DNA of 42,566 bases, taken from IMG/VR virus record IMGVR_UViG_2529292882_000014, positions 1 through 42,566 of that record. One strand, given 5' to 3'. Position numbers and translations under genes: made by a program. The notes under the pieces are model-generated. The model searched no databases. It saw only the letters and a program-made list of their open reading frames with translations, and was not told the DNA's origin. This document shows positions 1,536-39,248 of the stretch, piece by piece (the stretch's first letter is position 1; every line of letters begins with the position of its first letter). The DNA comes from a virus (lineage: Duplodnaviria > Heunggongvirae > Uroviricota > Caudoviricetes).

Positions 1536-2576
1536 ATGTCTATAAGAAATGGAAATCGTCTAGAATTCCTAGACTCTTTGCGTGGACTTGCAGCCCTGAT
1601 GGTTGCATGTGCACATTTCATAGAGCGAACACCATTGCATAACAGTTTTTTATTTAAGCATGTTAACTTTGGTCAGGTTGGTGTTGTTTGCTTCTTTGTG
1701 TTAAGTGGCATGGTAATACCTTACAGCCTAAAGGAAGGGAAAAGAGCGATATCCGGGTTCATTATATCAAGGTTTTTTAGACTATATCCCGCTTACTGGT
1801 TTTCAGTATTTCTGGCGGCCTTTACTTTTTTGTTTGTAACTCATAGACCACTTGATATAAGAACTCTGTTGTCTAATATTACCATGCTTCAATCTTTACT
1901 GAGATCTCCAGATATGTTTGGTGTTTATTGGACGCTAATAATTGAGTTGTTCTTCTATGCTTCCTGTGCGTTTCTTTTCAAAGTAAATTTATTAAAGAGT
2001 AAGGTTTCTTTATTTTTAATTTCTATAGGACTTATTGCAACCGCTCTTGCTTTCTCATACGTGAGATTCGTTCTTGATAAAAAAGTTCCTGTGGCAATAC
2101 CGCTAGCTATGTCATTAATGTTCTTTGGTAGCTTATGGCGTTCAGTGAGCATTGGGATTGCATCGAGATCAGAAAGAAATATGTGCATTGTATTTTTAAT
2201 AACATTCCTAGTGGCGATTGCTCCGATTTGCTTAATGTCCTACAATAAAGACTATGGGCATGGGGAAAATGCTTCCTCCTATATTGCTAGCTATCTTACA
2301 GGCATAGTATTGACGCTATTGCTCACTACACGGGTAAAATTGAATGTAGGATTATTGGTTTTCCTGGGATCGATAAGTTACTCTGTATACTTGATTCACC
2401 CATTCTTTTTAGAGATTGTATCTGTCAGTATAGACATGGACACAGATTTTAATTTTATTATTTTTGTTTTATACCTATTAGCTACGATCGCACTAGCAAC
2501 TATTTCTTATAAGGTAATTGAAAAACCATCTATAAATATAGGTCACAGGCTTAGGAAGATCGCACTAGCAAGCTGA
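1536..2576 (+). CDS. Acyltransferase family 3 (AT3) integral membrane protein, Oac-like O-antigen acetyltransferase candidate
   Basis: 346 aa, multiple hydrophobic segments; N-terminal motif RLEFLDSLRGLAALMVACAHF typical of AT3 acyltransferases; about 33% GC, adjacent to int and tailspike as in serotype-converting phages. Confidence 0.8.
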   Translation: MSIRNGNRLEFLDSLRGLAALMVACAHFIERTPLHNSFLFKHVNFGQVGVVCFFVLSGMVIPYSLKEGKRAISGFIISRFFRLYPAYWFSVFLAAFTFLFVTHRPLDIRTLLSNITMLQSLLRSPDMFGVYWTLIIELFFYASCAFLFKVNLLKSKVSLFLISIGLIATALAFSYVRFVLDKKVPVAIPLAMSLMFFGSLWRSVSIGIASRSERNMCIVFLITFLVAIAPICLMSYNKDYGHGENASSYIASYLTGIVLTLLLTTRVKLNVGLLVFLGSISYSVYLIHPFFLEIVSVSIDMDTDFNFIIFVLYLLATIALATISYKVIEKPSINIGHRLRKIALAS

Positions 2577-2739
2577 CATATGACATGAATCCCCAGCTTA
2601 GTTCTGGGGATATTTTCTGGTTATATAATACAATCCGAACTTACACCGAGAGCAAAAATCAATTATATAAGCATACTGTATCATTCATATTACTTTTACG
2701 CTAGGCTCAAGTATCCAATGATCAATAACAGACAAAAAA

Positions 2740-2759
2740 TACTGTATGTGTATACAGAG
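2740..2759. promoter_or_regulatory. LexA (SOS) box-like palindrome
   Basis: TACTGTATGTGTATACAGAG matches the CTGT-N8-ACAG SOS box pattern with an AT-rich spacer. Confidence 0.35.
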
Positions 2760-2905
2760 TCAGTGATATTTTTTCTGCTGCTCAATGAGCATTTCCGATC
2801 TTCCCACTTCTAAATTTATCCTCATGATGTTATTATCATTAAATTTATTTTAGGGGTAGTCACATGAGATATATTGCATTGTTTTTCTTTGCTCTTTCAC
2901 TGTAG

Positions 2906-3184
2906 ATGAATTGGACAATAAAAATGATAAAGTATAGAGCTGGTATAGATGGTTTAAGAGCAGTCGCTGTTGTGATGTTTCACGCTTTCCCAAGCGCATT
3001 TTCTGGAGAGTTCAATGGGTTTGATTTATTTTTCATAATATCTAGCCTTTTAATTTCAAGTATTATTTTTAAAAATTTAAATAGCGGTAAATTTTCTTTT
3101 TCCGATTTTTACTTAAGAAGGATTAAGCGGATTTTTACACTCTTACTCAGATCATATATAAGATTAGATTGCAAGTCTAGTTAG
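2906..3184 (+). pseudogene. Truncated N-terminal fragment of a second AT3 (OafA/OatA-like) acyltransferase
   Basis: 92-aa ORF with the AT3 N-terminal signature (GIDGLRAVAVVMFHAF ... FYLRRIKRIF) ending prematurely; the transmembrane core is absent. Confidence 0.5.
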
Positions 3185-3268
3185 TGGTTGGCTGAATAAT
3201 TTTCTCAATTCGTTGATTTGAAGCGTAAATATATTTTTAACCTTAAACCTTATTAAAAGGAAAATGCA

Positions 3269-3964
3269 ATGAAGTCAAAACAAACAAATAGAAAGTCTCA
3301 AGCAAATAAATATTTGGCAATGCTGTTTATTCTGATTGCAATAGTTATTATAGTATTGTCTGTTCGTTCAATTAGAAATTATTTATCTCAAAAAAAAGTT
3401 AACGACTTTCAGGCTGTGATGCTAGATTTTAAAAAAATGAATGCTAATCAAGCTGACGGCGACATTGTGGTTTATGGCGACTCGCTCATACAAGGAATGT
3501 CACCATATGGGTTAAACTTTAAATATGTTAATATGGGGGTCGGAGGATACTCTATACATCAGATCCTAACTCTATCAGAAAATTATGGGGCGTCTGGATA
3601 TAAAGCTGCGATAATTGAAGGTGGAGTTAACGATGCGATGGGTGCGAAAACCGAAGAGGAAATATTTGATGATTATGACAAACTGCTTAAGAGTGTATCA
3701 AAGGTTGATAATATTTATGCATTAAAAGTTTTGCCAATCATAAGCGGGGCAAGAAAAGACGTAGACCATGTCAATTCAAGAATAAGCATGATTAACTCTA
3801 TTATTGATAGAACATGTAGTCGCATAGTTAACTGCAATATAATAGAAGTTCCTGCAGATTTTTTATCTGATAAAAAATCTGAATTGTACTTTGATGATGG
3901 AGTGCATTTAAATAAAAATGGCTATGCCGTTTGGATGAGAGAGATTAATAAACATGTGAAGTAA
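3269..3964 (+). CDS. Membrane-anchored SGNH/GDSL hydrolase-fold protein
   Basis: 231 aa; one N-terminal TM helix (LAMLFILIAIVIIVLSV); SGNH blocks VVYGDSLIQG (I), NMGVGGYS (II), EGGVNDA (III), DDGVHLNKNGY (V); SD AAGGAAA upstream. Confidence 0.75.
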   Translation: MKSKQTNRKSQANKYLAMLFILIAIVIIVLSVRSIRNYLSQKKVNDFQAVMLDFKKMNANQADGDIVVYGDSLIQGMSPYGLNFKYVNMGVGGYSIHQILTLSENYGASGYKAAIIEGGVNDAMGAKTEEEIFDDYDKLLKSVSKVDNIYALKVLPIISGARKDVDHVNSRISMINSIIDRTCSRIVNCNIIEVPADFLSDKKSELYFDDGVHLNKNGYAVWMREINKHVK

Positions 3965-3969
3965 AAGAT

Positions 3970-3990
3970 GGCCGCATTGCGGCCTTTTTC
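3970..3990. terminator. Bidirectional rho-independent terminator between the convergent SGNH gene and tailspike
   Basis: GGCCGCATTGCGGCC hairpin followed by TTTTT on the plus strand and a T-run on the minus strand. Confidence 0.5.
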
Positions 3991-6227
3991 TACCAGGAAG
4001 CATCAATGTAAAATATTGGTGAGGCTGTAGTAGATCCATTAATTGTTATCGACCCGGTTGATGCGCTTATTGTTGCCATCGCCATACCGTAAGATATTCC
4101 ATCAGCAGTGAACGGTACAGGGACATTTTTTGTTACTGTTGGTCTACACCACCTTGGCAGCGTTAGAACAGTATTACCATTCGCAAATGAAGTGGCTGCC
4201 AGTTTAATATTAATTGAATTGGCAGTTAAACTTGACGGTGCCTGTACTGTTACGTTTGTTCCAGCCCACCATTGAACAGCTGCTCTTGGCGTGTAATCAA
4301 CACGCGACCACCAGTCGATAATGGCAGAGCAGATAATTTCCGCATACAGACGATACCCTAACTGGCTTTGGTGAATGTCATCACGCAGAAGTGGGTCGTA
4401 TTGCGTATTGAAATACTCTGGATATGGGGCCGGGAGCTGGTGAGTTGTTGTTACACAAATGACGTTATTGCCATATTTCATCATCTGGCGTTTACCAGCT
4501 TCTCGCAACTCTGCGACACCGTCGTAGTTAGAAGATGGCTGGCCAGCCCCTCCAATAAATGACTGGCTATACCACATCCACGGCTCAACCCAAACAGGGA
4601 TACGACCAAGGCCATTGCAATATAAGACAAACTCATCTATCAATGACGCCATATAATCGCCGTTTTGGTTTGCCTGCCCTTCGTTAGTTCCGGCAACCAT
4701 AATAACGATGTAAGCATCACCCGGCCCCTGAGCCTTCAGGAGATCTAACTGTTGCCTCATTGTCTGTCCGGCAACTGCCTTGTTTACAATGCTATGTGAA
4801 CGGTGGCCGTTCGCTCCATCCATTAATTGCGGAATGTACGAGCTGAACGCGGAAATGAAATCCTCAGCTGTACTATCACCGTGGATAAGGATATTAAGTG
4901 GAGGCTTACCGTGCACGCCATTATCAGAGGTGTAGCTGCATAATCCAGTTACACGCGCAGAACCTCCAGATGCCGTGGTCAGTGCAACAAACCCAACTTC
5001 GTATACATCCCCTACATCAGCAGTATCAAAGGGCAAACGTATCCCAACGCCATTCATCGTTATCTGCGCCCAGTTTTTACCTTGCAGTGATACGCCAACG
5101 GTTGCTTTGCCCGGGGCGTACGACAGTAAACCTCCTGGCAGCGGGAATGGAGTTCCTTCTGCTACTGGACCACCAATTGGTTTCTGTCTATAAGACCACT
5201 GTGTAGCACCTGGTGCCCCATAGAACATCATCCAACCACCAGAGCATCGCAGAACAATCCCAACTTCTGAGGCGGCCTGAGATTCCATACGAATATGTGC
5301 AGAAATATGCTCTCCAATATCTATTGGTGCGAACAGGCCTGTTGTACGGTTAGTAGTTAAGGGGAAGATAGCTGCGCTATCTGAGGATATGGTGACTTCA
5401 CCTTCATAGAAGAACGTGTCACCATTTATGGAATAAACTTTACAATCTGACCATTCCACTCGCTTCATGCGAATAGGGTTTCGGTTGAGGATAGCCTGCT
5501 TAGCCAGGTAATCCACTTCCCCACCGGTTGCTTTAAAGTTCAGGTGCGTAAATTCAAACGTACCCTCCCCCTCGTACTGCAACGATTTAAACAGTGAGTA
5601 CAGATCACTGTCGAATCTCAGGGTGACATTTTTATCAATGATTACTTTACTGTTCGCAAGGAAAGAAGCGTTAGCAGCTGTAGACGGTACGGTGTACACC
5701 ATCTGATTTTTTGAATGATTAGAGAAGTAAACATACCCGTAGGTCGCAACACTATCGCGCCATGCCTGGACTACGTTAGAATTAACATAGCTTGGGATTT
5801 TTGTGATCGAATGCAAAACAAGGTCTTCCTGTGAGATAGCTCCATTTACCAGATTAACACCGCCTTGAGATGCAAGATCTTGCCTGAGTTGGTCAGGGTC
5901 ATACTTCAACACATTCGGAAAATAGAACTGCTGCGAACCATACGCATCATAAACAGCCATAGAATGCCCTTGCACAGTTACGAACTTGGCAATTTGTCCG
6001 TTATATACCGGATATCCAGCAGCGTTAATGATGATTGGTTGCGAAACAGGAACGTGAGAACCGTCTTCGTTCTCCACATAAACCTGAATCTGGTTTTCAG
6101 GATTTACCGGGTCAGTGTCAATTTTACCGATATAAATTTTTCCATTGGCAACCGCTTTAAAAGAACGCGCCATAGTGAAGAGTTGCGAAGGCATCGATAC
6201 GATCACATTGGCTGTAATGTCTGTCAT
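3990..6227 (-). CDS. Tailspike protein with P22-type head-binding N-terminal domain and an internal SGNH-esterase-like motif set
   Basis: 745 aa; first ~110 aa ([58 protein letters not shown]...) closely resemble P22 gp9 N-terminus; later [20 protein letters not shown] and [10 protein letters not shown] resemble SGNH blocks I, III and V. Confidence 0.9.
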
Positions 6228-34699: not shown

Positions 34700-35068
34700 A
34701 TGTCAAACATCAAAAAATACATCATTGATTACGACTGGAAAGCATCAATAGAAATTGAAATCGACCATGACGTAATGACAGAGGAAAAACTTCACCAGAT
34801 TAATAATTTCTGGTCAGACTCTGAATACCGACTCAATAAACACGGCTCTGTATTAAATGCTGTATTAATCATGCTGGCGCAACATGCTCTGCTTATAGCA
34901 ATTTCAAGCGACTTAAATGCATATGGTGTTGTGTGTGAGTTCGACTGGAATGATGGAAATGGTCAGGAAGGATGGCCTCCAATGGATGGTAGCGAAGGAA
35001 TAAGAATTACCGATATCGACACATCAGGAATATTTGATTCAGATGATATGACTATCAAAGTCGCCTGA
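34700..35068 (+). CDS. Hypothetical acidic protein
   Basis: 122-aa ORF with GAGGA SD; Asp/Glu-rich; no family recognised. Confidence 0.55.
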   Translation: MSNIKKYIIDYDWKASIEIEIDHDVMTEEKLHQINNFWSDSEYRLNKHGSVLNAVLIMLAQHALLIAISSDLNAYGVVCEFDWNDGNGQEGWPPMDGSEGIRITDIDTSGIFDSDDMTIKVA

Positions 35069-35102: not shown

Positions 35103-36071
35103 ATGAGTGAAGTAACAGATTTAGTTGTTATTGAAAAAGCAAATGCAATGACTGTATTTCAGTCTGCCGACCAGATTGAAGAAATCCTTCAAAAGGTTGA
35201 ACGTGAAGTTATGTCCTTTGTGCCTGATATCACAACGGCAAAGGGCAGAAAGGAGATCGCTTCTCTGGCGTATAAAGTTGCGCAGACGAAAACATATCTC
35301 GATGGTCTTGGCAAAGACCTTGTTGCTGAACTGAAGGAAATTCCAAAGCTAATTGATGCTAACCGCAAGACAGTGCGTGATCGCCTTGATGAGCTGAAAG
35401 CCAAGGCGCGCCAGCCTCTTACTGATTATGAGGAAGAACAGGCGCGGATTAAAGCCGAAGAAGAAGCTAAGGCAGCAGCTGAAGCTCTCGCAAAGCAAAT
35501 TGAGTCTGACCATGAAATAGCTATTTTGATGGATCGCGAATTTGACCGCCAAAGAGAAGAGGCAAGACTCAAAGCGGAGCAGGAAAAGCGAGAGCATGAA
35601 GAACGATTAAAAAGAGAAGCTGAAGAGAAAGCCAGAGCAGAAGCCGAAGCAAAGGCAAAAGCCGAAATTGAAGCAGCAGCAAGGCGAGAAGCAGAAGCTA
35701 AGGCCGCAGCGGAACGTGCAGAGCGTGAACGCATTGAAGCCGAGCAACGAGCACAGCGCGAAGCAAAAGAGGCAGCAGAACGAGCTGAAAGAGAAAAGCA
35801 GGCAGCAATTGAAGCAGAACGCAGAAAAGCACAGGAGGAGGCTGAACGAATCCGGCGCGAGGCTGAAGCAAAAGAGCAAGCCAGAATAGCAGAAGAAAAA
35901 AGAATCAAGGACGAAGAAGAGCGTAGAGCAAAGGATAAAGCTCACCGGAAAGAAGTAAATAACAAAATACTTGCTGACCTTATCAAGGTTGGCGCATCAG
36001 AAGATGTTGCTAAAAATATCATAACAGCCATCGTAAAAGGCGAAGTATTCGCAACAAAAATAACCTACTAA
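35103..36071 (+). CDS. Coiled-coil protein with highly repetitive Glu/Ala/Lys/Arg-rich central region
   Basis: 322 aa; GGAGGA SD; about 170 aa of EAKA/RAER-type repeats; the repetitive DNA generates spurious antisense ORFs. Confidence 0.65.
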   Translation: MSEVTDLVVIEKANAMTVFQSADQIEEILQKVEREVMSFVPDITTAKGRKEIASLAYKVAQTKTYLDGLGKDLVAELKEIPKLIDANRKTVRDRLDELKAKARQPLTDYEEEQARIKAEEEAKAAAEALAKQIESDHEIAILMDREFDRQREEARLKAEQEKREHEERLKREAEEKARAEAEAKAKAEIEAAARREAEAKAAAERAERERIEAEQRAQREAKEAAERAEREKQAAIEAERRKAQEEAERIRREAEAKEQARIAEEKRIKDEEERRAKDKAHRKEVNNKILADLIKVGASEDVAKNIITAIVKGEVFATKITY

Positions 36072-36363: not shown

Positions 36364-36518
36364 GTTTTACAGATAACTGTTCAGACGAAGAATTCATTCG
36401 TCAGATGAAAGAATTAATCGGTAACGAAGGAGATATTCATGTCACTTGCAACCACAGTGAAGGAGAGCAAGTTACAGAGACGCATGTACACGCAGAAAGC
36501 TCTCTGGTATCGCCATAA
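36360..36518 (+). CDS. Small hypothetical ORF (52 aa)
   Basis: Manual translation MSFTDNCSDEEFIRQMKELIGNEGDIHVTCNHSEGEQ...; ATGA overlap with the previous ORF. Confidence 0.3.
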   Translation: MSFTDNCSDEEFIRQMKELIGNEGDIHVTCNHSEGEQVTETHVHAESSLVSP

Positions 36519-36617
36519 TGGCGACCGCGAAGGAATGCGGGTATGCCTTAATTTGTCCAGAGTCGAAGTATTAAACCAGCGTTATTTCCTTGGGCCATGT
36601 CCATTCTGAGGTGAATT

Positions 36618-37325
36618 ATGGATTTGAATAAATTCGATGAGCCATTCAGCCCTGAAGATATCGAATGGCGAATACAGCAAAGCGGTGAAACACGCGATGG
36701 CAAAGTGTGGGCTATGGTGCTGGCTTATGTCACGAACCGGGCAATCATGAAACGCCTTGACGATGTTTGTGGCAAAGCAGGATGGCGCAATGAATACCGC
36801 GATATTCCCAACAACGGCGGCGTTGAATGCGGCATATCAATAAAGATTGATTCCGAATGGGTAACCAAATGGGATGCTGCTGAAAACACGCAGGTAGAAG
36901 CCGTCAAAGGTGGTCGTTCCGGTGCAATGAAGCGCGCTGCCGTTCAGTGGGGAATCGGTCGGTATCTGTATAACCTTGAGGAAGGTTTCGCACAAACATC
37001 TCTCGATAAAAAGCAGGGGTGGCACAGGGCAAAACTGAAGGATGGAACAGGATTTTACTGGCTCCCTCCATCGCTGCCGGGATGGGCAATCCCAGCATCA
37101 GATAACAAACCATCACCAGAAAATACCAACCAGAAATCTCCATCGGTTGACTGCGAACAAATCCTGAAAGACTTCAGCGATTATGCGTCAACAGAAACTG
37201 ACAAGAAAAAACTCATCGAGCGTTATCAGCGTGACTGGCAATTAATGGCTGGCAACGAGGAGGCGCAGGCTAAATGCGTTCAGGTAATGAACATCAGAGT
37301 TAACGAACTAAAACAGGCGGCATAA
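36618..37325 (+). CDS. Single-strand annealing protein, Rad52/Rad22-like
   Basis: 235 aa; motif GGRSGAMKRAAVQWGIGRYLYNL characteristic of Rad52-type annealing proteins; immediately followed by SSB. Confidence 0.7.
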   Translation: MDLNKFDEPFSPEDIEWRIQQSGETRDGKVWAMVLAYVTNRAIMKRLDDVCGKAGWRNEYRDIPNNGGVECGISIKIDSEWVTKWDAAENTQVEAVKGGRSGAMKRAAVQWGIGRYLYNLEEGFAQTSLDKKQGWHRAKLKDGTGFYWLPPSLPGWAIPASDNKPSPENTNQKSPSVDCEQILKDFSDYASTETDKKKLIERYQRDWQLMAGNEEAQAKCVQVMNIRVNELKQAA

Positions 37326-37832
37326 ATGGGAAGTAGAGGCGTAAATAAGGTGATTATCCTTGGTCGGGTAGGACAAGACCCGGAAGTTCGATACTCACCA
37401 TCAGGAACAGCGTTCGCTAACCTGACAATAGCAACTTCAGAACAATGGCGAGATAAAAATACTGGCGAGCAAAAGGAATTGACTGAATGGCATCGTGTTG
37501 CTGTATCCGGGAAACTGGCTGAGGTCGTGGGGCAGTATGTGAAAAAAGGTGATCAGATTTATTTCGAGGGAATGCTGAGAACCAGAAAGTGGAAAGACCA
37601 GTCAGGGCAAGACCGTTACACAACCGAGGTTCATGTCGGAATTAATGGCGTGATGCAAATGCTTGGCGGCATTGGCGACAGCAAACAACAAGCAGCCAGC
37701 AGGCAATCACAGAAGCCACAGCAGCAATCATCACCAGCACAACACAACGAACCTCCGATGGATTTTGACGACGATATACCCTTTGCACCAGTAACTCTCC
37801 CCTTCCCTCGTCACGCTATTCACGCAATTTAA
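37326..37832 (+). CDS. ssb: Single-stranded DNA-binding protein (SSB) with unusual C-terminal extension
   Basis: 168 aa; OB-fold N-terminus ([36 protein letters not shown]), Gln/Pro-rich tail, acidic tip MDFDDDIPF followed by 15 extra residues before the stop. Confidence 0.85.
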
Positions 37833-37845
37833 TCAGGAGAAAATC

Positions 37846-38142
37846 ATGCCAGCGCCTCTGTATGGTGCGGATGACCCGCGCCGCTGTTCCGGCAATTCCG
37901 TATCGGAGGTGCTGGATAAATTCAGAAAAAACTACGACCTGATAATGTCTCTACCGCAGGAAACGAAAGAGGAAAAGGAATTTCGCCACTGTATATGGCT
38001 TGCAGAGAAAGAAGAACGCGAGCGAATTTACCAGACATCAATCCGACCATTCCGCAAAGCCACATATACCCACTTCCCTGAATATATCGACCCGCGCCTG
38101 CGTAATTACCGCTCACGCTATGGCGCTATCAGTAATGACTGA
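37846..38142 (+). CDS. Hypothetical protein
   Basis: 98-aa ORF in the PL operon. Confidence 0.5.
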   Translation: MPAPLYGADDPRRCSGNSVSEVLDKFRKNYDLIMSLPQETKEEKEFRHCIWLAEKEERERIYQTSIRPFRKATYTHFPEYIDPRLRNYRSRYGAISND

Positions 38143-38443: not shown

Positions 38444-38607
38444 GAGGACTTGCATACAATCCCGGCATTCTTCCGGCAGAAATGATTATTCGCCAACGCG
38501 TAAAGCCAATGCCATCGAGAGAGGAATTACTTAAGAGAAATTCTTTTCCATCAGTGAATGAAAACAAATATCTGAATGCGATGTGGCGCAAAGGAGGCAG
38601 CCAGTGA
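38440..38607 (+). CDS. Small hypothetical protein (55 aa)
   Basis: Manual translation; ATGA overlap with the upstream stop and GTGA overlap with the downstream start. Confidence 0.35.
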
Positions 38608-39248
38608 CTAACCGTTTTTACATGATGTGCTCGCGTGAAACTGTGGGCAATAACGCTTCATTCCATTGCCATAACGGCAATGGTTACAGTTCTGATATCG
38701 ATCGCGCTCATGTTTACACGCTGGAAGAAGCCCAAAAAGCCTGGAATTGTGGGCGAGATATCGATCAGCCTGTTTGCGCTGATAGCGTGGATGCAATGGC
38801 AGTGTGGCACGTTGATTGCCAGTACATCCCTACAGAAAGCCTGATTGAGTCAGATTGCACTGCGTATGTGGCCTACAAAAAAGGTAGCTGGAACGGCAAC
38901 GATGTTTACTGGCTTCAACACGGTGGATTGCCAACAGATGACTTCAGTAAAGCGACCATCTTTAGCGTCGCCAACAAAAACGAACCAGGAATAGTTTGGT
39001 TGCCATTTTCCATTGCTGATGCAGCAAAGCGCAGGACGTTCAATATCAATAACTTTAACCGCAGAACAATGGTTCAGGGCGCAGGTTTGGTCATGCCTGA
39101 CTGGTTGAAAGAGCAGAACAGAAGAAAGAAGTCGCGAAGCGGGAAGGTGCGTTGGAATTGTCCGCATTGCGGAAAAATCTCCTGGCAGTACAGCCCATAT
39201 GATTTTGAAGGCTGTAGTGATTACAACTGTGAAGGATGGCGAGAATGA
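38604..39248 (+). CDS. Hypothetical protein with C-terminal Cys-rich (zinc-ribbon-like) segment
   Basis: GTG start coupled to the upstream stop with GGAGG SD; C-terminal [29 protein letters not shown]. Confidence 0.5.

Follow-up and report, generated by a model that had tools for sequence, protein, structure and literature searches.

A conserved peptide follows the acidic tip in a mobile-element subfamily of single-stranded DNA-binding proteins of Enterobacterales

We have found that an SSB (single-stranded DNA-binding protein) encoded by a virus of the Caudoviricetes (IMG/VR record IMGVR_UViG_2529292882_000014) carries a conserved peptide of 15 residues beyond its acidic tip, the segment that is normally the free C-terminus. 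The whole record, positions 1 to 42,566, was analysed and is referred to as the window; the peptide is referred to as the tail. The window SSB is an ordinary member of a large mobile-element SSB subfamily that is carried by lambdoid and P22-like phages, integrative and conjugative element (ICE)-like islands and IncN plasmids of Enterobacterales, and the tail is ancestral to this subfamily. Some phages have an endonuclease cassette at the boundary of tip and tail, and its insertion gives an SSB with a free tip and shifts the tail onto the endonuclease. A tailed mobile-element SSB subfamily, with gating of the tip by the tail as the inferred part, is our best overall explanation of the locus, and we hold it with somewhat better than even confidence.

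A description of the tail was not found in the open-access literature; the papers on the epsilon34 genome, on SsbB of the gonococcal genetic island and on transfer of the F-plasmid SSB are without mention of it. The sole trace found in existing records is a comment in the annotation of phage Sf6, according to which gp26 has 14 contiguous residues in common with an 'E. coli SSB'. Tailed sequences are already public, annotated as ordinary SSB. The capped tip, its spread over phages, ICE-like islands and IncN plasmids, and the insertion of an endonuclease at the boundary appear to be undescribed in the open-access literature.

Current understanding makes the C-terminal tip of SSB the universal handle by which proteins dock in the bacterial genome-maintenance hub, with the carboxylate of its terminal Phe as an essential contact. 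On partner proteins, the site that binds this C-terminal segment (SSB-Ct) has three elements: the terminal Phe enters a hydrophobic pocket, its alpha-carboxyl group is anchored by a 'basic lip', and a basic ridge completes the site. Binding is abolished when the terminal Phe is removed (PMC10164576). By domain content the window SSB is a bacterial-type SSB that fails one canonical feature, in that its tip is not C-terminal. The PF00436 match spans residues 6-104, and the TIGR00621 profile reaches its last position at residue 153, which leaves residues 154-168 outside the canonical family model. The codon of the tip Phe153 lies at 37782-37784 and the TAA stop codon at 37830-37832; where a canonical SSB ends in this Phe with a free alpha-carboxylate, the window SSB has 15 more codons. 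The initial annotation had described a 15-codon extension beyond DDDIPF, and codons 37785-37829, followed directly by TAA, bear this out. The parts of the gene are given below, where N/S is the ratio of non-synonymous to synonymous changes and pLDDT the per-residue confidence of an AlphaFold2 (AF2) model.

37326..37832, plus strand: ssb of the extended mobile-element type, 168 codons and TAA (Pfam SSB, E 1.6e-36; TIGR00621 over residues 4-153)
37326..37661, plus strand: oligonucleotide/oligosaccharide-binding (OB) fold domain, residues 1-112, predicted to bind single-stranded DNA (ssDNA) and to oligomerise (pLDDT 80-85 in the strands, residues 8-112; N/S 0.14; PDB 1eqq, E 3e-57)
37662..37757, plus strand: Q/P-rich, intrinsically disordered linker, residues 113-144 (pLDDT below 50; length varies in the alignment; N/S 0.42)
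37758..37784, plus strand: SSB-Ct acidic tip MDFDDDIPF, residues 145-153, identical to that of the host protein but internal (N/S 0.02)
37785..37829, plus strand: post-tip tail of 15 codons, residues 154-168, conserved and of near-constant length (N/S 0.39; disordered in the AF2 model)
37784..37785, no strand: empty insertion site, where the 438-nt cassette of the phage Huey type (stop codon, ribosome-binding site and endonuclease open reading frame) falls exactly

The tail is widespread in relatives of the window. The 1.2-kb module that contains ssb is 98.5-99.1% identical in the viable phages HK75, mEp235 and mEpX2 (99% for ssb itself), about 90% identical in the Salmonella phages epsilon34 and g341c, and 85-88% identical in ECP1 and CP-1639; when translated, the SSBs of HK75, epsilon34 and ECP1 have the same 15-residue ending. 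Matches were present in 409 of 5,426 complete E. coli genomes (about 304 records at 90% identity or more), and all of those sampled are annotated in RefSeq as plain 'ssb'. Among the 120 closest protein clusters at 90% identity, 112 have a tail after the tip, spanning E. coli, Salmonella, Klebsiella, Citrobacter, Enterobacter, Kluyvera, Pluralibacter and Phytobacter, with tail variants, SPVGLQYGKHRVYAL among them, that have diverged along with the body of the protein. A search of representatives at 50% identity added two further tail-like variants among 150 representatives. More distant tails were recovered by a scan of one genome per species in Tatumella (APIGLQHPAHFIYSI), Mixta, Xenorhabdus (APIGKQYPNHTIYVI), Providencia, Brenneria, Chimaeribacter, Enterobacter and Scandinavium, the last four of which form the group in which the ICE-like-island variants IGFGYGVPKSAIHAL and LGFGYGVCRKAIYAIS occur. 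About 70 host-type SSBs from the same scan all end at DIPF, and none has a tail. Conjugative IncN plasmids of the pTR4 type encode an SSB with a tail after the tip; most other sampled plasmid SSBs, mainly from large Klebsiella, E. coli and Salmonella plasmids, align only to residue 115 or 153.

A random reading frame runs for about 20 codons to the next stop, so a read-through of 15 codons would be unremarkable by itself. What goes beyond chance is the conservation of the tail over 92 unique extended alleles: its length is 15 residues, or 16 in three of the 92, and a single allele is truncated. The 16-residue variants end in ...AIYAIS or ...TIHAIC, and a 12-residue variant, in a Salmonella cluster of 588 member sequences (P0001), has lost one HAI of HAIHAI and ends in ...HAI. 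The family as a whole approximates to the consensus [AS]P[VI][TG]L[PQ][FY]P[RK]H[AT]I[HY][AV][IL], the terminus of which is a basic residue followed by the hydrophobic pattern [AT]-I-[HY]-x-[IL]. The initial annotation had left the choice between a genuine variant and a lost stop codon to a comparison with SSBs of related prophages. That comparison finds the extension conserved in phages, prophages, ICE-like islands and IncN plasmids; it supports the genuine variant and refutes the lost stop codon, since an extension shared by related phages and prophages was the refuting observation that the annotation itself had named.

Selection was assessed by codon-level counts on the 92 unique extended alleles, both as the ratio of non-synonymous to synonymous differences per site over all pairs (pN/pS) and as N/S along a minimum spanning tree.

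OB fold: all-pairs pN/pS 0.20; minimum-spanning-tree N/S 0.14
Linker: all-pairs pN/pS 0.52; minimum-spanning-tree N/S 0.42
Tip: all-pairs pN/pS 0.02; minimum-spanning-tree N/S 0.02
Tail: all-pairs pN/pS 0.39; minimum-spanning-tree N/S 0.39

These ratios put the tail under moderate purifying selection and well away from neutrality; its positions 12 (Ile), 13 (His or Tyr) and 15 (Ile or Leu) are near-invariant. The tip is the most constrained region of the gene and is identical to that of the host, so a tip that has simply been inactivated is unlikely. In the AF2 monomer model, built from an alignment of 52 sequences, the OB fold is confident and residues 114-168 are disordered (pLDDT 32-45 over the tail); the tail thus behaves as a short linear motif. 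A PDB sequence search with tip and tail together matched the tip only and returned no solved structure for the tail.

In phages Sf6 and Huey the same gene is found in a split form. The Sf6 SSB, gp27, ends in NFDDSDIPF*, and gp26, an endonuclease of 159 residues, starts nine bases further on and ends in the tail peptide. Huey has the same layout with an endonuclease of 155 residues, and SSB endings across the Sf6 and Huey types are NFDDEIPF* or NFDDSDIPF*. The tail equals the last 14 residues of both endonucleases, with 14-15 residues shared.

3692-4171 of the fetched Sf6 locus: gp26 endonuclease
2686-3153 of the fetched Huey locus: endonuclease

Alignment of the window with Huey places the boundary to the base. 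The two ssb genes are 100% identical over nucleotides 113-431, the last tip-coding bases have 8 mismatches in 28, and a single gap of 438 nt opens right after the Phe codon (TTT); identity returns at the tail (GCA versus GAA) and continues through abc2. The cassette, composed of a stop codon, a ribosome-binding site and the endonuclease open reading frame (ORF), measures 438-456 nt across the Sf6 and Huey types, and its ORF reads into the SSB tail. The window is without the 438-nt cassette and represents the uninterrupted, empty-site allele. A set of 36 unique tail-less phage ssb alleles was assembled from IMG/VR and GenBank loci. In 30 of these the gene is followed by this endonuclease with the tail and in three by a T7 gp7.7-like HNH protein without the tail (the ES18 type), the remaining three having other neighbours.

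The endonuclease comprises at least three subtypes that have a near-identical C-terminal third and only about 47% identity overall. Among 77 homologues from a collection of 5.8 billion proteins, most full-length ones end a few residues past ...WHKHNKPIY. The tail is present only on copies that adjoin this type of ssb, and there in matching variants, 'DEAPVTL' among them. Because homologues lack the tail, and because the PHROG profile of the endonuclease stops at residue 139 of 155, the tail is native to SSB and was captured by the endonuclease ORF. No tail-ending protein other than SSB and the inserted endonuclease was found in the window and about 350 fetched loci. A Pfam search with the endonuclease gave no match; its core (residues 50-130) is 44-47% identical to I-KsaII-type ORFs in the polA introns of Staphylococcus phage K. 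With the cassette present or absent at one precise site, the obvious reading is that it encodes a putative His-Me-finger (HNH-like) homing endonuclease. The converse history, in which the tail would be the scar of a deleted endonuclease gene, was ruled out by the tail-less homologues and by tip codons that differ between the allele types. The 8 differing bases in 28 place the window tip in another lineage, so the window allele is not a deletion product of a Huey- or Sf6-type allele.

The ssb-abc2 junction is also a hot spot of insertion and deletion. ES18 has there an unrelated HNH_3 endonuclease, the T7 gp7.7-like gp47 (1577-2098 of its fetched locus), and epsilon34 a Rv2179c-like 3'-5' exonuclease, gp34 (3724-4272). 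Chimeric database proteins derive from the same junction (P0131, P0134, P0144, P0173, P0177, P0180 and P0183) and join, for example, an SSB N-terminus to an endonuclease C-terminus, or an endonuclease N-terminus to an exonuclease or helix-turn-helix C-terminus.

The genes beside tailed ssb vary. Its upstream partner is a Rad52 protein in the window, RecT in Tatumella, an AAA_24 (Sak4-like) protein in Mixta, and ERF with an RNase_T exonuclease in Xenorhabdus. In Brenneria, Chimaeribacter, Enterobacter and Scandinavium the order is that of an ICE-like island, with TopoIII, DUF3577, ssb and a TcpQ/pilus gene (about 2900-4050 in the four fetched loci), the kind of conserved TopoIII/DUF3577/ssb cluster that is on record for the surroundings of SsbB in the gonococcal genetic island (PMC3334931). 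On IncN plasmids the genes around ssb include ardR and other anti-restriction genes, and the gene that stands back to back with it encodes a SprT-family zinc metalloprotease.

2568-3353 and 3061-3849 of two fetched IncN plasmid loci: extended ssb/SprT region

A tie between the tail and the Rad52-like annealase was considered and is ruled out by the RecT, ERF, AAA_24 and TopoIII/DUF3577 neighbours. Given such varied neighbours, the tail is no handle for a single element-encoded recombinase, and its partner, if any, would be a host factor or SSB itself. The possibility that the tail is boundary sequence of abc2 was likewise rejected, as epsilon34 has a different next gene and homology ends there at the ssb stop codon.

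We propose, tentatively, that the tail acts on access to the tip, by gating or redirecting it, and so makes a 'private' SSB for the ssDNA of the element, with the basic-hydrophobic terminus as a second signal. The peptide bond after Phe153 takes away the free alpha-carboxylate. Host SSB-interacting proteins would then lose the 'basic lip' anchor on the element SSB, and this SSB could cover the ssDNA intermediates of the element with host nucleases, helicases and mediators (exonuclease I (ExoI), RecQ, RecG, PriA and RecO) either not engaged or engaged only in a gated manner. To this the conserved end of the tail would add another short linear motif, read by a host factor as a docking or a turnover signal. 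The extreme constraint on the capped tip indicates that it is still used, whether together with the tail in a composite site, within the molecule itself or once the tail has been removed. The fullest form of this proposal, a control peptide that rewires the SSB hub, whose cap blocks ExoI, RecQ, RecG, RecO and PriA, whose terminus recruits or is processed by a host factor, and for which the cassette is a switch between capped and free-tip states, is possible but rather doubtful.

Several observations weigh against gating. The N/S of 0.02 at the capped tip speaks against a tip that is simply dead and masked. Sf6, Huey and ES18 are viable although their ssb is without the tail, which makes the tail dispensable for growth, and the variants that end in ...AIYAIS and ...TIHAIC imply that the carboxylate of the terminal Ile or Leu is not strictly required. 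The constraint on the tail is only moderate and resembles that on the disordered linker, and the AF2 model gives no structural hint as to the tail. Synonymous variation points the same way: over the 92 alleles, pS is 0.30 in the tail, about half the value in the codons of the OB fold, linker and tip (0.60-0.67). This halving implies that the E. coli and Salmonella alleles owe part of their uniformity to recombination or gene conversion, and it suggests recent spread of the tail by recombination or by endonuclease-linked gene conversion, or else an extra constraint at the nucleotide level. Synonymous and non-synonymous tail changes were also compared between the SSB and the endonuclease contexts, where changes were too few for discrimination.

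The last of these possibilities can be put more strongly, with the peptide as a by-product of constraint on the DNA, the 45 nt being either a mosaic joint or recombination sequence, or else the site that the homing endonuclease targets and uses as its homology arm. The pS of 0.30 against about 0.60 in the rest of ssb agrees with this, as do a single tail haplotype in 49 of 74 unique E. coli/Salmonella-type contexts and the return of homology exactly at the tail when endonuclease-bearing and endonuclease-free alleles are aligned. We nevertheless judge it very unlikely. The end of epsilon34 homology at the ssb stop codon means that the tail travels with ssb and not with a downstream joint; the distant variants of ICE-like islands, Xenorhabdus, Providencia and IncN plasmids keep the pattern and length of the peptide in other DNA; non-synonymous changes are under-represented (N/S 0.39); and the ribosome-binding site of abc2 sits past the stop codon, so the tail is not needed for carrying it. 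Still less can be said for an artefact or recent accident, be it sequencing error, a lost stop codon or the scar of endonuclease loss from an Sf6- or Huey-like ancestor, which we regard as refuted. The match of the tail to the final 14 residues of the endonucleases in Sf6 and Huey would fit a scar, and the chimeric ORFs P0131, P0134 and P0173 show that deletions do occur at the locus, but hundreds of independent assemblies carry the tail, its variants have diverged with their proteins across genera and element types, the endonuclease family is natively without it, and simple deletion cannot yield the window allele with its 8 differing tip-codon bases in 28. Conservation in viable phages, hundreds of genomes and several types of element rules out error and a lost stop codon alike.

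Two further accounts concern the function of the peptide. The tail could be a degron or pro-peptide, its non-polar, basic-flanked C-terminus (...PRHAIHAI) being seen by a host AAA+ protease, with the outcome either a short-lived element SSB or clipping after Phe153 that exposes the canonical tip at the right time. This would suit a capped tip that is conserved as if used free (N/S 0.02), a tail that is disordered and C-terminal, a partner that must be a host factor given four annealase families, ICE-like islands and plasmids, and the ...RHAI end retained by the 12-residue variant P0001; the IncN ssb adjoins a gene for a SprT-family metalloprotease, and a tail on the endonuclease would usefully restrict a toxic nuclease. 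Signals for ClpX include the LAA type of ssrA and the ...RRKKAI type of MuA, in which basic residues precede a terminal small or hydrophobic pair with a free carboxylate. The end of the tail may resemble the MuA signal and, besides, non-polar C-terminal degrons. The ends ...PRHAIHAI, ...GKHRVYAL and ...PKSAIHAL fit such motifs loosely, but the 16-residue variants do not, the Ser or Cys that they add past the terminal Ile spoiling a strict signal of the ssrA/MuA type, and the phage contexts encode no dedicated protease. We consider this account unlikely. The tail could instead be a docking peptide for one host protein, for example a hexapeptide beta-clamp motif, that acts independently of the tip, adding a client and blocking none. 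Hydrophobic residues alternate at positions 3, 5 and 7 of the tail and are kept by very different variants, and the tail behaves as a portable module on both SSB and endonuclease. Beta-clamp motifs take the form QL[SD]LF or QLxLxL, as in QLSLPL of Hda and QLVLGL of Pol IV. When the tail hexapeptides PVTLPF, PIGLQF and IGFGYG are set beside these motifs, the V-x-L-x-F spacing of hydrophobic residues is present and the signature Gln is missing, replaced in all variants by Pro, Tyr or Phe. The best conserved part of the tail is its last four residues, not the hexapeptide, and no structure in the PDB and no paper matches it, so that a docking peptide of this kind is improbable.

The gated, capped tip that we favour can be set against known systems. 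The chromosomal SSB of E. coli (1eqq/4mz9; TIGR00621) is alike in its OB fold (E 3e-57), its Q/P-rich disordered linker and its identical tip MDFDDDIPF; it differs in having the tip Phe as its last residue, with a free alpha-carboxylate that partners anchor (PMC10164576), whereas the window SSB runs 15 residues further. The IncF-type leading-region SSBs (F Ssf and relatives) are likewise paralogues on mobile elements, expressed when the element makes ssDNA. Most sampled plasmid SSBs (of untyped incompatibility groups) differ from the window SSB in stopping at the canonical end, and those of IncN plasmids have the tail. The SSB of HK620, partner of Sak4, is also encoded by a P22-like phage beside an annealase and upstream of abc2 (PMC5928155). 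Its C-terminal tip mediates stimulation of the annealase, and deletion of its six residues abolishes loading of Sak4 (PMC5928155); unlike the capped tip of the window SSB, it has a free NDYPPF end (PMC5928155). Sf6 gp27/gp26 and Huey have in common with the window the body of ssb, the tail DNA and abc2 downstream, and differ in that the cassette parts tip from tail and the tail is translated as the C-terminus of the endonuclease. Free-standing and intron-borne His-Me-finger homing endonucleases such as I-KsaII resemble the inserted endonuclease in sequence (44-47% identity), in polymorphism at one site and in diverged flanking codons; the window, in contrast, is an empty site.

Phages, ICE-like islands and IncN resistance plasmids thus carry a large natural class of SSBs in which a tip identical to that of the host is buried behind a conserved peptide, and the endonuclease insertion supplies a natural matched control in which the same gene has a free tip. 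Together these make it testable whether mobile elements gate or block access of the host to their own SSB-coated DNA. The matter bears on recombineering tools that combine an annealase with an SSB tail, on plasmid establishment, on control of the SOS response, and on defences that sense phage SSBs or need ExoI. If the proposal is true, capping could reduce induction of the SOS response, attack by nucleases or the action of defence systems that sense SSB. If the tail is inert, a value for annotation remains, tailed SSBs being neither frameshifted nor ordinary free-tip SSBs.

The module around ssb has the order kil, small ORF, annealase, ssb and abc2, as in HK75, Sf6, ES18 and ST64T. The initial annotation had called a Rad52-type annealing protein with its own SSB, and both calls hold (Pfam Rad52_Rad22, E 8e-26; SSB, E 1.6e-36), with abc2 next. 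The other features of the module are as follows.

36439..36609, plus strand: small ORF of 56 residues upstream of the annealase, putative (phrog_1723, E 9e-36; PHROG label 'recombinase', HK97 gp42-like)
36618..37325, plus strand: Rad52-family single-strand annealing protein of 235 residues (PF04098, E 8e-26; phrog_1097, E 1e-129)
37835..37839, plus strand: AGGAG ribosome-binding site of abc2, past the ssb stop codon, read from the sequence
37846..38142, plus strand: abc2, P22-type anti-RecBCD protein 2, next gene of the module (PF11043, E 4e-63)

Homologues of the small ORF are annotated in HK75, Sf6 and ECP1. The Rad52_Rad22 domain of the annealase occupies residues 4-136 (positions 7-153 of 153 in the PF04098 profile), and its C-terminal 79 or so residues (157-235; 37086-37322) share 63% identity with the C-terminus of P22 Erf, a protein whose N-terminal domain belongs to another family than the Rad52 domain of the annealase. 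It is thus a C-terminal module that has been swapped, as the epsilon34 genome paper also mentions, and it is possibly the end that binds a partner. In HK022, gp40 (127 residues; 1194-1577 of the fetched locus) lies between an Erf-type annealase and abc2 and is annotated as 'likely analog of P22 Abc1'. It gave no match in a Pfam search and ends in an SSB-like acidic tip, ...PEYDDSIPF*; gp40 may therefore be a small SSB that has diverged strongly, rather than an analogue of Abc1.

Elsewhere in the window, an ORF of 322 residues at 35103-36071 has a long, highly charged centre rich in Glu, Lys, Ala and Arg, likely a coiled coil; it is a homologue of Sf6 gp33 (phrog_1376) and was without a match in a Pfam search. 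The ORFs at 34700-35068 and 38583-39248 are conserved and belong to the early left operon; one is a DUF2528 protein (E 1.8e-47) and the other, of 221 residues (phrog_2457), has a Cys-rich C-terminus (CPHCG...C...C). In its right half (20000-42566) the window combines P22-like and lambdoid phages in a mosaic. From end to end this half is matched by none of the sequenced phages in the searched collection, and the best matches, vB_EcoP-611R6, CUS-3 and IME10, cover 44-49% of it at about 97% identity.

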